DNA from: an uncultured Candidatus Saccharibacteria bacterium
Lineage (GTDB): Bacteria; Patescibacteriota; Minisyncoccia; Phycocordibacterales; UBA918
Assembly: GCA_964608605.1 (NCBI GenBank)
Contig: CAZSOS010000001.1
Span: 117,888-181,887 of the forward strand
Direction: 5' to 3'
DNA length: 64,000 bases
Part shown: positions 1,938-51,239 of the stretch, in pieces
How the letters are laid out: each line of letters begins with the position of its first letter
How positions within the stretch are numbered: the stretch's first letter is position 1
Program-made: the position numbers and the translations under genes
The notes under the pieces: generated by a model
The model's database searches: none
Told to the model about the DNA's origin: nothing
What the model saw: only the letters and a program-made list of their open reading frames with translations

Positions 1938-3293
1938 ATGACCAAAGAAGCCTTACAAAAAAAGAAGCTGCCTGACGCACCCGGGGTGTACTTTTTTCTG
2001 GGTGCCCGGAAAGAGATACTCTATATCGGCAAGGCCACTTCACTACGCAATCGGGTGCGCAGCTACTTCGCGCCGGACATCAAGGACAAACGCTCGGCCC
2101 TGATCGAAAAGATGGTGTCGGAGGCTAAGAGTGTAGAGTCGACCGTGACCGACTCGGTCTTGGAGGCGCTCATCCTCGAAACCAACCTCATTCGCACCCA
2201 CAAGCCAAGGTACAACACCATCTCCAAGGACGATAAGAGCTACAACCACCTCATCATCACCGATGAGGAGTGGCCGCGGGTTTTGGTGGTGCGCGGCAAA
2301 GACCTTGATGGTTATACCAGTCTGACTAGTATAAGAAATAATGTAAATACTAGTCAGACTGGTATAAGCTATCACTTCGGTCCGTTTCCAAACGGCCAGC
2401 TATTTCGCGAGGCGCTGAAGATCGTGCGTCGCCTGTTCCAGTTTTATGATACCAAAGAGCCGGTGGGCACGGAAAAGTCGAAACTAGTACGCGGCAAGAT
2501 CGACTTCAATCGGCAGATCGGCCTTTACCCCCACACCAACTTTTCCGTAGCGCCGGAGGCGCGTCAGTCTTCAAAGAAGACTGACAACGGAAAAGTTGGT
2601 GTGGGGGTGTACCTGAGCGAAGTCACGCAGGCGAAGAAGGACTATCAACGTACCATCCGCTATATCCGACTTTTCTTTGAAGGCAAGAAAGGACAGATCA
2701 TCAAAGAGTTAGAGAAAGAGATGAACGCCTTGGCCAAGGAAGAAAGGTTCGAGGAGGCTAACGTCATCAAGAAGAAGGTGTTCGCGTTGCAGCACATTCA
2801 GGACATCGCCCTTATCAAGGATGAGAGCCGCGTCTATCGCGACGAGAATTCTGTACGCATCGAGGCCTACGACGTGGCGCATCTTTATGGCAGCGACATG
2901 GTCGGCGTGATGACCGTGGTCGAAGGCGGGGAAATGAAGCGCTCTGAATACCGCAAGTTCAAGATAGAGAGCGTTACCGGATCGAACGACCCGGCGGCTT
3001 TGCGCGAGGTGTTGGAGCGCCGCCTGCATCACGTGGAGTGGCCCTTTCCACAGATCATCGCGGTCGATGGTTCGACGGCGCAGAAGAACGTAGCCGAACG
3101 GGTGCTTAGAAAGCGCGGACTGATGATACCGGTGGTGGCGGTCGTCAAAGACGACCGCCACCGTCCCGTCCGCGTCCTCGGCCCGGCCTCGCTTCTCAAA
3201 AAACACCACGACGCTATTCTCTTGGCGAACGCCGAGGCCCACCGATTCTCTATCGGTTTCCACCGTGAGCGACGCGGGCGGAGGTTAGGGTAG
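1938..3293 (+). CDS. uvrC: Excinuclease ABC subunit C (UvrC), GIY-YIG plus endonuclease domain, lacking C-terminal HhH; carries two in-frame palindromic insertions
   Basis: PGVYFF...YIGKATSLRNRVRSYF GIY-YIG motif, FGPFPNG, C-terminal EAHRFSIGFHRERR; ATG 1938 preferred over GTG 1896 by alignment to UvrC N-termini. Confidence 0.85.
   Translation: MTKEALQKKKLPDAPGVYFFLGARKEILYIGKATSLRNRVRSYFAPDIKDKRSALIEKMVSEAKSVESTVTDSVLEALILETNLIRTHKPRYNTISKDDKSYNHLIITDEEWPRVLVVRGKDLDGYTSLTSIRNNVNTSQTGISYHFGPFPNGQLFREALKIVRRLFQFYDTKEPVGTEKSKLVRGKIDFNRQIGLYPHTNFSVAPEARQSSKKTDNGKVGVGVYLSEVTQAKKDYQRTIRYIRLFFEGKKGQIIKELEKEMNALAKEERFEEANVIKKKVFALQHIQDIALIKDESRVYRDENSVRIEAYDVAHLYGSDMVGVMTVVEGGEMKRSEYRKFKIESVTGSNDPAALREVLERRLHHVEWPFPQIIAVDGSTAQKNVAERVLRKRGLMIPVVAVVKDDRHRPVRVLGPASLLKKHHDAILLANAEAHRFSIGFHRERRGRRLG
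2312..2368. repeat. Palindromic element type 1, copy A, in-frame within uvrC
   Basis: TTATACCAGTCTGACTAGTAT ... ATACTAGTCAGACTGGTATAA; ~20-bp perfect inverted repeat around AT-rich 14-nt loop; near-identical copy at 13028-13078. Confidence 0.85.
2526..2609. repeat. Palindromic element type 2, nested inverted repeats, in-frame within uvrC
   Basis: ACCCCCACACCAACTTTTCCGT (2527-2548) perfectly complementary to ACGGAAAAGTTGGTGTGGGGGT (2587-2608); inner palindrome GTCAGTCTTCaaaGAAGACTGAC (2563-2585). Confidence 0.8.
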
Positions 3294-3302
3294 GTGTATA
3301 AT
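3294..3302 (+). promoter_or_regulatory. extended -10 box TGtATAAT upstream of 3330 ORF
   Basis: gtgTATAATgg immediately after uvrC stop. Confidence 0.35.
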
Positions 3303-3329
3303 GGTTTTATCATTTAACTTGCCCTCCGT

Positions 3330-3641
3330 ATGATTTTGTCCTCACAAAGTCCTGTGGTAGAAAAACACTATTTATTTGTATCTATTCTACTTGGTCTCAT
3401 AGGTTTTGCTGCGGGCGATACGTGGTTTCGTACATACATATTTGAACTCAATTGGATTTTTGTCATAGCAGGTTTAGCCGGTACGATTAGTTTTCTTCTT
3501 GGGCTACGAGGATTGCTTAAAACCAAATATACAATCTTAGGTTTAATAAGCATCCTTCTTTCGGTGTACGGTGCGTTAGTTCCGGTTGTGTACGTTATAT
3601 TTTGGTTTGCGATTATAGTTTCGTCAGTCCTTCAGTACTAA
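3330..3641 (+). CDS. small hydrophobic membrane protein (103 aa), AT-rich locus
   Basis: ORF with 3 predicted TM helices by hydrophobicity; local AT-rich composition. Confidence 0.45.
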   Translation: MILSSQSPVVEKHYLFVSILLGLIGFAAGDTWFRTYIFELNWIFVIAGLAGTISFLLGLRGLLKTKYTILGLISILLSVYGALVPVVYVIFWFAIIVSSVLQY

Positions 3642-3719
3642 GCCACTAAATCACTCGCTCGGTAGTATATACGTCATTGAAAACTTGAGTAATTCTCATA
3701 ACTTTTAATTTGAGCGGAG

Positions 3720-3728
3720 TGTTATAAT
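3720..3728 (+). promoter_or_regulatory. extended -10 box TGtTATAAT 6 nt upstream of ddl ATG (leaderless arrangement)
   Basis: gtgTTATAATctccgtATG. Confidence 0.5.
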
Positions 3729-3734
3729 CTCCGT

Positions 3735-7797: not shown

Positions 7798-7840
7798 GTG
7801 GGTATAAAAAGGCGGCCCAAAGGGCCGCCTTTTTATACCC
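7798..7840. terminator. perfect palindromic terminator
   Basis: GGGTATAAAAAGGCGGCCCaaaGGGCCGCCTTTTTATACCC. Confidence 0.75.
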
Positions 7841-9676: not shown

Positions 9677-10051
9677 ATGAACGCGCAACTAAAACGATAC
9701 GTCGAAGCCGCGGCCGCCCTTCTCAAGGAGGGGATGGCCGTCGACGTGGTCCTCCGGAATCTGCGCCGGATCATGGACGACCGCGGCCACGGCAAGATGT
9801 ACCAAGCGGTAGCGCGGGCGCTGGCTCGGACCTATCCTTCGATCGAACGCTCCGTAACCCCGCTGTTGACCGTGGCCAAGGAGTCGGACGCCGCCAAGTA
9901 CCGACAGCTCGTCGGCGACAAGGATGTGGAGGTCAAGATAGACCCTTCGATCATCGGCGGCTACGTTCTGACCGAAAACTTCACCCGCCGGGACAATAGC
10001 TATCGATCCAAACTGCTCACGTGGTATCGGTCGGCTATTGCCTCAAAATAA
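9677..10051 (+). CDS. atpH: F0F1 ATP synthase subunit delta (short, 124 aa)
   Basis: C-terminal IDPSIIGGYVL OSCP/delta signature; operon position. Confidence 0.7.
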   Translation: MNAQLKRYVEAAAALLKEGMAVDVVLRNLRRIMDDRGHGKMYQAVARALARTYPSIERSVTPLLTVAKESDAAKYRQLVGDKDVEVKIDPSIIGGYVLTENFTRRDNSYRSKLLTWYRSAIASK

Positions 10052-10117
10052 AAAAGTAAATGTCAAAATAAAAATATAGTCTTTTGACATTTGAGTTTTA
10101 AATTTTAAATTAACAAC

Positions 10118-12716: not shown

Positions 12717-14132
<1,416 letters not shown>

Positions 14133-22050: not shown

Positions 22051-22086
22051 AAAAAGCGGCGGGGCCAGAGGCCCCGCCGCTTTTTA
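22051..22086. terminator. bidirectional terminator between convergent genes
   Basis: AAAAAGCGGCGGGGCCagagGCCCCGCCGCTTTTT. Confidence 0.8.
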
Positions 22087-25192: not shown

Positions 25193-25277
25193 AAGTTAGG
25201 GTGAAGGGTATAGGGTAAAGGGTAAGTGGGGTTGGTGAGATCGGGGCGCGGCGGCTTCGCCGCCGCGCCCCGATCTC

Positions 25278-35324: not shown

Positions 35325-35421
35325 GGTAGAGGCGCGAAAAAGGCGGATCATATGATCCGCCTTTTTCGCGCCCGGCGCTCACTTTGCCGAAAACAGGTGT
35401 GCTATCATTTAAAGACAAATT

Positions 35422-46018: not shown

Positions 46019-47902
46019 ATGTCAGGAAATGAGATCCGCGAGAAATACCTGAAGTTTATGGAAGCGCGCGGGCACGCCATCGTGCCTTCCTCGGCTCTGG
46101 TGCCGGAGAATGATCCGACCACGCTCTTTACCGGCTCGGGCATGCAGCCGATGCTGCCGTACTTGCTTGGCGAAACACATCCGAAAGGCACGCGCATTGT
46201 CGATAGCCAGAAATGCTTCCGCGCCGAAGATATCGATGAGGTCGGTGACAACCGCCACACCACGTTCTTCGAGATGTTGGGCAATTGGTCGTTTGGCGAC
46301 TACTTTAAAGAAGAGCAGATCGAGTGGATGTTCGAGTTTTTGACGAAAGAAGTCGGTATCGACCCGAGTCGTTTGTATATCACTGTCTTCGGCGGCGATG
46401 ACAAAAACAACTTGCCGAAGGACGAGGAAGCACCACGGATCTGGCAACGGTTGTTCTCTTCCGTGGGCATCGAAGCCGGAGTAGCTGATATCGGTAGCGA
46501 AGCGGCCGGCTATGAGCGCGGCATCAAGGAAGGCGAGCGCATTTTCTATTACGAAGCCAAGAAGAACTGGTGGTCGAGGGCCGGCGTGCCGGATAAGATG
46601 CCGATCGGCGAGCCGGGCGGCCCGGACTCCGAGATGTTTTATGATTTCGGCACGCCGCACGACCCCAAGTGGGGTGGACATTGCCATCCGAACTGCGATT
46701 GCGGCCGCTTCATGGAGATCGGCAACAACGTCTTCATGCAGTATGTGAAGACCGGTGAAGGGCAGTTTGAAGAACTCAAAAATAAGAACATCGACTTCGG
46801 CGGTGGAATGGAGCGTATGCTGGCGGCCGCGCTCCATAGTTCGCAAAACATCGATGATGTTTTCAAAACCGATGTGTTTACACCGATAATCCGTCAAATC
46901 GAGGAGTTGTCGGGTAAAAAATACGAAGAGGCGTTGACCGCTTTCCGTATCATCGCCGACCATATCCGCGGCGCGGTCTTTATGATCGGCGATGGCATTC
47001 TGCCGTCTAATTCCGAACAGGGTTATTTCGCTCGTCGGCTGTTGCGCCGAGCCGTGCGTTATGCCGATCAGTTGGGTGTGCCGGATGGTGAGTTGAAAAA
47101 CTTGGCAGAGGGGGTTATCCACATCTATAAGACGCCTTATCCCGATCTGTTGGACAAAAAGGACAACATCATGGATGCCATCGCCCGCGAAGAGGAGCAG
47201 TTCCGTAAAACTCTCGAGAAGGGCCTCAAAGAGTTTGAAAAACTGGCCGCTCAAGGACAACTCTCCGGTGATGACGCCTTCGTGCTTTTCACAACCTATG
47301 GCTTTCCGTATGAACTGACCGAGGAGTTGGCCCGCGATCGAGGTTTGACCGTGGATAAGGAGAGTTTCGAAAACAAGATGAAGGAACACCAGGAGTTGTC
47401 TCGTTCCGGGGCTGAACAGAAGTTTAAGGGCGGCCTGGCCGATCATTCTGAGAAGGTGGTGCAGTACCATACGGTCACGCACCTGATGTTGGCGGGCTTG
47501 CGTAAATACCTGGGCCACGGCGTGCACCAGGCCGGATCCAATATCACCGGCGAACGTTTGCGCTTCGATTTCACGCATCCGGATAAAGTCGAGCGTGAAG
47601 TGCTGGATATGGTTGAGGAGTTCGTGAATAGCGCTATTCAAACCGGTGGTGACGTAACGATCGAGATGGTGCCGAAAGCTCAAGCTGAGAACGATCCTTC
47701 CATCGAAGGTAGCTTCTGGGACCGATATCCGGACGAAGTTAAGGTCTATACTGTCACTGGCCGTAATGGAGAGGTCTTTTCCCGCGAGCTCTGCGGCGGT
47801 CCGCATGTGGAGCAGCTTGAGGACATCAAAGGCCGGTTCAAGATCGTAAAGGAAGAATCCTCTTCGGCCGGAGTGCGACGGGTGAAAGCGGTACTGGAGT
47901 GA
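46019..47902 (+). CDS. alaS: alanine--tRNA ligase, short form (catalytic + tRNA recognition + editing, no C-Ala domain)
   Basis: N-terminal class II AlaRS motifs, editing-site HxxxH...CGGPHV; leaderless after gcTATATT at 46005. Confidence 0.9.
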   Translation: MSGNEIREKYLKFMEARGHAIVPSSALVPENDPTTLFTGSGMQPMLPYLLGETHPKGTRIVDSQKCFRAEDIDEVGDNRHTTFFEMLGNWSFGDYFKEEQIEWMFEFLTKEVGIDPSRLYITVFGGDDKNNLPKDEEAPRIWQRLFSSVGIEAGVADIGSEAAGYERGIKEGERIFYYEAKKNWWSRAGVPDKMPIGEPGGPDSEMFYDFGTPHDPKWGGHCHPNCDCGRFMEIGNNVFMQYVKTGEGQFEELKNKNIDFGGGMERMLAAALHSSQNIDDVFKTDVFTPIIRQIEELSGKKYEEALTAFRIIADHIRGAVFMIGDGILPSNSEQGYFARRLLRRAVRYADQLGVPDGELKNLAEGVIHIYKTPYPDLLDKKDNIMDAIAREEEQFRKTLEKGLKEFEKLAAQGQLSGDDAFVLFTTYGFPYELTEELARDRGLTVDKESFENKMKEHQELSRSGAEQKFKGGLADHSEKVVQYHTVTHLMLAGLRKYLGHGVHQAGSNITGERLRFDFTHPDKVEREVLDMVEEFVNSAIQTGGDVTIEMVPKAQAENDPSIEGSFWDRYPDEVKVYTVTGRNGEVFSRELCGGPHVEQLEDIKGRFKIVKEESSSAGVRRVKAVLE

Positions 47903-47945
47903 ACAAAGAGCGCGGGGCCGAAGGCCCCGCGCTCTTTGTTCAAAA
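47902..47945. terminator. rho-independent terminator after alaS
   Basis: AAAGAGCGCGGGGCCgaaGGCCCCGCGCTCTTT. Confidence 0.8.
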
Positions 47946-50788: not shown

Positions 50789-51166
50789 ATGAGAATTTCA
50801 GGTATCAACATCCCAGATAACAAGCATCTCTCGTTCGGACTGACCGCCGTTTACGGCATCGGTCGTACCCGCGCCAAGGAGATCCTGGCCGAGCTTAAGA
50901 TAGACCAGTTCGCCAAGCCGGCCGACCTGTCCCCGGAATTGGAGAACTCCGTTCGCGAGAAGGTGGAGTCCTTCACCATCGAAGGCGAATTGAAGCGCAA
51001 GGTGTCCTCTGACATCAAGCGTCTCAAGGACATTCAGTCTTACCGCGGATCGCGCCATCAGAAGCGCTTGCCGGCCCGCGGCCAGCGCACCAAGACCAAC
51101 GCCCGCACCTTGAAGGGCGTCAAGAAGACGATGGGTAGCGGACGCCGTAAGCTCGAGAAAACCTAA
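50789..51166 (+). CDS. rpsM: 30S ribosomal protein S13
   Basis: MRISGINIPDNKHLSFGLTAVYGIGRTRA. Confidence 0.9.
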   Translation: MRISGINIPDNKHLSFGLTAVYGIGRTRAKEILAELKIDQFAKPADLSPELENSVREKVESFTIEGELKRKVSSDIKRLKDIQSYRGSRHQKRLPARGQRTKTNARTLKGVKKTMGSGRRKLEKT

Positions 51167-51239
51167 AAGTTGAAACTTGAAATCTCAAAATGGAAAATTT
51201 TCAACTTTGAGATTTCCACTTTAAATTTACAAATTTCCT

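Follow-up and report, generated by a model that had tools for sequence, protein, structure and literature searches.

A perfect palindrome within the uvrC gene of an uncultured Candidatus Saccharibacteria bacterium is one copy of an apparently undescribed family of small mobile DNA hairpins that is dispersed in genomes of the Candidate Phyla Radiation (CPR, Patescibacteria). The palindrome lies in a 64-kb stretch of contig CAZSOS010000001.1, which was analyzed at its full length and is referred to here as the window. In our reading, to which we assign a probability of about three in four, it is a bacterial MITE, or miniature inverted-repeat transposable element, that is inserted in-frame in uvrC, belongs to a family dispersed among CPR genomes and is flanked by a 4-bp duplication of its target. 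A literature search returned no description of MITEs or palindromic repeats in Patescibacteria/CPR, nor of the arm sequence.

During a repeat search of the window we found ACCCCCACACCAACTTTTCCGT at 2527-2548 and its exact reverse complement at 2587-2608, forming an inverted repeat with 22-nt arms, 100% complementarity and a spacer of 38 nt. The initial annotation, made from the sequence alone, had described this perfect 22-bp inverted repeat and judged it very unlikely to occur by chance, and indeed 100 dinucleotide shuffles did not produce a single match to the ACCCCCACACCAACTTTTCCGT arms. Allowing for up to 3 mismatches, no further match to the arms besides this pair is present in the 64-kb window. 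The inner 10-bp inverted repeat around AAA, which had also been described, is located at 2563-2585 (GTCAGTCTTC-AAA-GAAGACTGAC, hairpin 2), and a further small hairpin at 2550-2562 (GCGCC-GGA-GGCGC, hairpin 1) had been overlooked. RNA folding, which the initial annotation had suggested as a check, gave -67.1 kcal/mol for a 96-nt stretch (z = -13.3, none of 200 shuffles folding equally well), and DNA folding of the same stretch gave -43.4 kcal/mol (z = -13.1). The two folds agree in one long stem bearing two small hairpins side by side, and an unpaired A flanks these interior hairpins on each side, at 2549 and 2586. The host gene, the element and its parts are located as follows:

1938-3293, plus strand: host gene uvrC of the short CPR type, 451 residues including both inserts (list of open reading frames (ORFs), Pfam).
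2524-2527, no strand assigned: left copy of the target-site duplication, TTTA (codon view and family-wide register of the 4-bp repeat).
2528-2607, no strand assigned: the element, 80 bp.
2528-2548, no strand assigned: left terminal inverted repeat, CCCCCACACCAACTTTTCCGT (arm matches and pairwise covariation over 52 copies).
2549-2586, no strand assigned: interior, composed of hairpin 1 (2550-2562) and hairpin 2 (2563-2585) (folds).
2587-2607, no strand assigned: right terminal inverted repeat, ACGGAAAAGTTGGTGTGGGGG (arm matches).
2608-2611, no strand assigned: right-hand repeat of the duplicated target, TGTA, which matches the left copy at 3 of 4 positions.

The UvrC protein of the window is a 100% match to database protein P0001 and contains the Pfam domains GIY-YIG (PF01541), UVR (PF02151) and UvrC RNase H-like (PF08459). 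Thousands of relatives with a length of 406-411 residues originate from Parcubacteria- and Kaiserbacteria-type metagenome-assembled genomes. The two closest homologues, P0003 (88% identity) and P0002 (84%), do not contain the 28-residue segment encoded by the palindrome, which is therefore considered an insertion. In the alignment of UvrC homologues, a further check named by the initial annotation, the extra segment is missing from 113 of the 120 best homologues: here the spacing from FNRQIGL to IRHI is 13 residues, compared to 43 in the window protein. The inserted total is exactly 84 nt or 28 codons (28 codons had been estimated beforehand), made up of the 80-bp element and one copy of the 4-bp duplicated target. 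Since 84 nt are in-frame and no stop occurs, the uvrC ORF stays intact.

The empty sites of the two closest relatives read TTG TAT CCC (P0003, locus L004) and CTG TAT CCC (P0002, locus L057), and both contain the tetranucleotide once. In the window the mismatch between TTTA and TGTA falls on a synonymous position. The duplicated TA together with the CCCCC of the element gives TAC CCC, by which the invariant Tyr-Pro of the GLYP motif is rebuilt upstream of the insert, and the original Tyr codon is located after the insert. In the uvrC frame the arms read PHT-x-F and KVGVG without a stop. The predicted 28-residue segment is HTNFSVAPEARQSSKKTDNGKVGVGVYL and the predicted tryptic peptide across the insert is VGVGVYLSEVTQAK. 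We infer that this loop is translated and tolerated by UvrC; it is probably disordered.

When aligned to UvrC of E. coli, the insert site corresponds to ...QIGRCLGPC..., the Cys-rich motif, in agreement with the Cys-containing loop named in the initial annotation. CPR proteins contain none of the four cysteines of this motif (alignment with E. coli uvrC, L056). No solved structure in the PDB spans UvrC residues ~103-300. In an AlphaFold2 model built from 48 homologues, residues 169-228 are predicted as coil with a predicted local distance difference test score below 50, and a position of the insert in a surface loop of UvrC is weakly supported by modelling. In comparison to E. coli, CPR-type UvrC (406-411 residues without inserts) lacks approximately 100 residues between the UVR and the RNase H-like domains as well as the C-terminal helix-hairpin-helix domain (L056). 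A UvrC homologue of 572 residues, P0004, features an internal duplication of ~150 residues and a scrambled C-terminus and is encoded on a contig of 3.8 kb; it is probably an assembly artefact.

To characterize the distribution of the palindrome beyond the window, we scanned one genome per species with the two-arm pattern CCCACACCNNNTTTTN{20,50}AAAANNNGGTGTGGG. The scan returned 47 loci. All but two bear the labels of Patescibacteria-type lineages (Yonath-, Nomura-, Kaiser-, Zambryskii- and Buchananbacteria, Paceibacterota, Minisyncoccia and 'Saccharibacteria'), and two additional complete copies were found within these loci. Several genomes contain more than one copy on different contigs: eight in CAZTRC01, four in MHUW01 and three each in DCYR01, JBAQCU01 and JANLIM01. 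The initial annotation had named an observation that would speak against a palindromic element, namely a sequence without copies anywhere else and conserved at the protein level in distant UvrC homologues; copies do exist elsewhere, and we found no such conservation. Comparing 315 ORFs from the loci all against all, no gene family occurred in more than 4 loci, which argues that the copies are located in unrelated contexts and that nothing encoded nearby travels with them. Simple ORF calls place 22 copies between genes, and a further 19 only reach into the end of an ORF. Six copies that appeared to be intragenic (L006, L020, L031, L035, L038, L045) were rejected as such, as they precede the true start codon or fall within spurious ORFs on the antisense strand. 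Among the ~50 sampled copies uvrC is the sole deep intragenic location.

A metagenome scan with the A-variant arms of the window yielded three copies only, all of them intergenic and none sharing the window interior. In viral contigs no two-arm match was found and one lone half-arm was compatible with chance; the plasmid collection contained no family match and the phage collection a single 27-nt chance match. Protein searches with a concatenated two-frame profile of the element peptides resulted in one meaningless match (E = 9.7), and a 63-residue junction query gave no candidate. At L026 (7217-7245) we noticed an unpartnered left arm of the family that directly adjoins a tRNA-like sequence; this copy is truncated, or else it has inserted beside a tRNA gene.

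The consensus ends of the family are CCCCCACACC-T-A-C-TTTTT and its complement, approximately 21 bp in length, with T also occurring as A, C or G and C also as T; the arms are of the type CCCCCACACCTACTTTTT. Elements are 55-83 bp long with a mode of 68-70 bp. A 4-nt direct repeat directly abuts the CCCCC.../...GGGGG ends and is perfect in 36 of 53 copies, compared to 6.8 perfect repeats expected from random re-pairing of left and right flanks. When considering only copies without TATA, the repeat is still perfect in 23 of 37. The repeat sequences include TATA (13), TTTA (6), CTTG (5) and CAAG (4), and the target consensus is approximately G|YWWR|C, with G favoured before the repeat and C after it. 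CTTG and its complement CAAG are both present, as expected if one target was entered in either orientation. Arm positions 11-13 and 18-21 were not fixed by the search pattern; there, between 36 and 52 of 52 copies form Watson-Crick pairs, with two to four kinds of pair at each position, which represents covariation. The element has no coding capacity for a transposase and possesses terminal inverted repeats and a target-site duplication, three of the features by which MITEs are recognized.

About one third of the copies contain two inner G...C hairpins, whose loops are often AAA; the remaining copies feature one hairpin or an A/T-rich interior. A GCGCC-NNN-GGCGC hairpin at the same place as hairpin 1 recurs in nine other copies (L010, L017, L021, L025, L028, L045, L046, L047, L051), and the window interior is therefore considered homologous to a common subfamily and not nested. 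The palindrome had been called nested in the initial annotation: the inner repeat itself is real, but it belongs to a recurrent family architecture, and we discarded the insertion of a second element into the first. In the major variant of the family GTAG is found within the right arm, with its position varying in a compensated manner (GTTGG, GTGGG, GTCGG, ACAGG).

This anatomy has to be weighed against a different class of mobile hairpin. The family could be of the repetitive extragenic palindromic (REP) or REP doublet forming hairpin (REPIN) type, or derived from IS200/IS605, in which case the folded, T-shaped hairpin and not a pair of double-stranded inverted ends would be recognized by a HUH tyrosine transposase, either a REP-associated tyrosine transposase (RAYT) or Y1. 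REPINs are known as whole-element hairpins with compensated stem changes, and here too the entire element folds into one hairpin whose stem changes are compensated. In many copies there are two inner G...C hairpins capped by AAA-type triloops, the right arm of the major variant contains GTAG, and the majority of copies are intergenic. At L003 (1-219) a gene fragment with a weak Pfam match to Y1_Tnp (IS200/IS605- or RAYT-type), cut by the end of the locus, is located ~10 kb upstream of a uvrC gene carrying the element, and would fit a transposase of this kind. Nevertheless we consider such an origin unlikely: a variable 4-bp direct repeat accompanies 36 of 53 copies, whereas to our knowledge HUH/Y1 transposition creates no target duplication. 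Furthermore, the position of GTAG is freely variable with compensation, and no Y1 gene recurs beside the elements at the loci.

Next to its dispersal, the occupancy of the uvrC site informs about the history of the element. Among 120 close homologues the site is filled in four, in each case at the same codon: in the window, P0005 (L002), P0007 (L001) and P0105 (L003). It is empty in P0003/L004 and P0002/L057. In all four carriers the insert is a multiple of 3 and free of stops, and all follow the same plan of a long stem with two inner hairpins and near-identical ends. Changes in the stem are compensated (CCAAC/GTTGG in the window, CCCAC/GTGGG in L001, CCGAC/GTCGG in L002). L001 and L002 share one interior, while the window copy, L001/L002 and L003 have mutually unrelated interiors. 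An intron-like excision, a translational bypass or an assembly artefact would each offer another explanation for a hairpin at this site, and known bypass elements do possess strong hairpins within coding sequence. Yet an open frame in multiples of three would be unneeded in all four carriers if the insert were removed, four independent assemblies (NCBI, Logan, ENA) share the insert at the same site, and no intron or ribozyme model matched; the probability of this explanation is next to negligible.

It may also be asked whether the hairpin, rather than being selfish DNA, acts in cis on the mRNA or DNA of uvrC and is under selection, e.g. as an RNase III site or as a pause in translation by which UvrC levels are tuned. 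A 22-bp perfect mRNA stem could attract RNase III or slow ribosomes, and the stability of the structure (-67 kcal/mol), the stem maintained by compensated changes among the uvrC carriers and the conserved synonymous positions inside the arms would be compatible with such a role. But 116 of the 120 close UvrC homologues do without the hairpin, and the same ends are found at ~50 unrelated, mostly intergenic sites elsewhere, by which the conservation is accounted for. No family of Rfam 15 matches at the element (the window's sole match at the gathering score is a tRNA-Ala), and scanning 2250-2700 against Rfam gave only generic hairpin matches to miRNA models far under threshold. A terminator-like call was not obtained at the element, which has no T-tail, and an intrinsic terminator was ruled out for this reason. 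A selected cis-acting structure therefore appears very unlikely to us.

We then assessed the age of the insertion. In a neighbour-joining tree of 119 UvrC proteins, calculated after removal of the insert columns, every carrier groups as sister to non-carriers. L001 and L002 are 85% identical in the insert, compared to 72% over the whole gene and 44% if only third codon positions are counted. This peak of identity ends at the boundaries of the insert, and on these grounds we discarded the possibility that a larger piece of uvrC was recently transferred from one carrier to another. The window arms are perfect at 22 of 22 positions, while third positions are just 47% identical to those of the sister L004. 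Because of the insert identity, the perfect arms, the unrelated interiors and the scattered carriers, the insertions are read as younger than the splits of the host genes. These sequence comparisons point to recent or recurrent insertion at the uvrC site rather than to one ancient event.

The opposing view concerns only the history of the uvrC copy and not its family membership: a single ancient insertion into uvrC could have been inherited vertically and lost precisely on repeated occasions, with the palindrome maintained by selection or by hairpin-templated correction. The identical codon in the four carriers and the common interior of L001 and L002 fit this scenario, as does the fact that no further deep intragenic site was found among the sampled copies. 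Precise loss would be possible between the 4-bp direct repeats flanking the hairpin; slippage between short direct repeats that flank a hairpin is a known route of such losses. However, with the carriers scattered in the tree, each beside non-carriers, many independent precise losses would be required. The unrelated interiors combined with ends that match the dispersed family, the identity of 85% confined to the insert against 44% at third positions, and perfect arms despite a saturated neutral divergence from the sister are likewise not expected under an ancient origin, and we regard it as somewhat unlikely.

Under the MITE reading, the copy would have entered the Leu-Tyr codons of the invariant FNRQIGLYP motif, where TA from the target and CCCCC from the element would restore TAC CCC (Tyr-Pro). 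The element would then be read through as a 28-residue loop at the position of the Cys-rich motif lost in this lineage. Mobilization would occur in trans by a transposase making a 4-bp staggered cut, to which the 4-bp duplication points. The uvrC gene may represent a good target, with TATA, TTTA or TGTA as core in invariant codons, that was struck recurrently, and selection may have retained this rare tolerant site.

Several observations weigh against this reading. No autonomous element or transposase with the family ends and no unpaired distant arms were found in ~360 kb of fetched loci, the collections of viral contigs, plasmids and phages yielded no such element either, and no neighbouring gene recurs among the loci. 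The 64-kb window itself holds one copy, the evidence for multiple copies coming from other genomes, and translation of the uvrC loop is deduced from the open frame. The core of the target-site duplication is A/T-rich and often self-complementary (TATA), and in such cases direct and inverted repeats of the flanks are indistinguishable. In L003 a change from C to G and a 3-nt deletion are mirrored in both arms, which suits a fold-back or hairpin intermediate as much as it does classical cut-and-paste movement. Finally, with no further deep intragenic copy among the ~50 sampled, four occupancies of one codon exceed the recurrence expected from a loose YWWR preference. A CPR-specific mobile hairpin that, unlike an ordinary cut-and-paste MITE, moves via a folded single-strand, T-shaped intermediate would be a more unusual solution. 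It might also be homing-like in preferring the uvrC codons for GLYP, so that one codon was entered time and again in separate lineages, with the loop replacing a lost Fe-S motif. A single-strand intermediate of this shape would account for substitutions and indels being mirrored between the arms. We consider this proposal improbable.

The window contains further palindromes. The initial annotation had proposed that uvrC carries two different palindromic elements, and a second one with other arms was indeed located by the repeat search:

2312-2367, no strand assigned: separate palindromic element in uvrC, arms TTATACCAGTCTGACTAGTAT, short A/T loop (repeat search); not of the studied family.

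This element adds 15 residues to uvrC. It is found again in-frame in atpD (ATP synthase beta, 13027-13078), where it adds 13 residues. The uvrC gene of P0002/L057 contains the TTATACCAGTCTGACTAGTAT element at the same site with identical arms and a different loop, and uvrC of L002 retains only its right arm. The two elements of uvrC had been considered unrelated. Their sequences do differ, but both have CC...GG as their ends and TATA-type tetranucleotides next to them. For the TTATACCAGTCTGACTAGTAT element, which has TATA on both sides, a target duplication is inseparable from an extended inverted repeat.

Downstream of uvrC a segment of low GC content (34-42%, 3294-3734) separates the gene from ddl and includes a hydrophobic ORF of 103 residues at 3330-3641. 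It looks like a small inserted gene, since in L004 ddl follows 18 bp after uvrC. Motifs resembling TGTTATAAT are located at both edges of this segment. In addition we noticed perfect intergenic palindromes with 16-21-bp arms at 7800-7840, 22051-22085, 25237-25277, 35331-35372 and 47900-47942. Several of them, with runs of A at one side and runs of T at the opposite side, resemble bidirectional terminators; the palindrome at 35331-35372 is a loopless one of 42 bp. Two A/T-rich imperfect palindromes (10045-10105 and 51156-51239) with 74-79% complementarity and no open frame across them may represent regulatory or origin-like regions.

Since CPR/Patescibacteria genomes are tiny, a family spread over many classes of the phylum would serve as a marker of past or present transposase activity. 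Such a family would also give rise to assembly breaks and erroneous ORF calls in metagenome-assembled genomes, and would be the second case in nature, Rickettsia being the first, in which selfish palindromes were absorbed into essential proteins. The uvrC site points to a part of UvrC in which 24-28 additional residues are apparently tolerated, at the position of a Cys-rich motif that this lineage has dispensed with.

Rickettsia palindromic elements (RPEs) are repeated palindromes located in-frame in housekeeping genes of a bacterium with a reduced genome and read through as a compatible peptide (PMC10969869). The uvrC copy is alike in being an in-frame palindrome in a housekeeping gene with an open read-through frame, as predicted from the ORF. 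In contrast, RPEs are ~100-150 bp long and about half of them are intragenic, while the CPR family measures 55-83 bp and is almost wholly intergenic with a clear 4-bp target duplication, unlike RPEs. RPEs furthermore belong to another host phylum and have no known sequence relation to the family.

Bacterial MITEs such as Correia, RUP, ERIC and QMITE are short and non-coding with terminal inverted repeats, a target duplication, many dispersed copies, hairpin folding and occasional in-frame gene fusions (PMC10969869). With its mode of 68-70 bp the CPR family is among the smallest MITEs. It differs from those named by its distinct CCCCCACACC... ends, the 4-bp YWWR duplication, a T-shaped interior in many copies and the fact that no parent insertion sequence was found, as well as by a host range that in our scan is almost wholly Patescibacteria. 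With REPINs or REP sequences and their RAYT it has in common intergenic hairpin repeats, compensated stems and GTAG in the major variant. Of the traits that characterize these systems, namely no duplication, a conserved GTAG and a flanking RAYT gene, none applies: a target duplication is present, GTAG is unconserved, and no associated RAYT gene or recurrent Y1 gene was found at the loci, where the weak Y1_Tnp fragment of L003 is the sole such match.

The inverted terminal repeats of parvoviruses such as adeno-associated virus adopt a T-shape as well, with a long stem, two hairpins side by side and AAA/TTT triloops. This is an analogy of shape only, with no sequence relation, Rep gene or replicon end at the element, and such a T-shape is present in only about one third of the family copies. 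The closest functional parallel is provided by RPEs and the closest structural class by bacterial MITEs. The unusual traits of the CPR family are the T-shaped interior with its arm-to-arm symmetry and the repeated occupancy of one uvrC codon.

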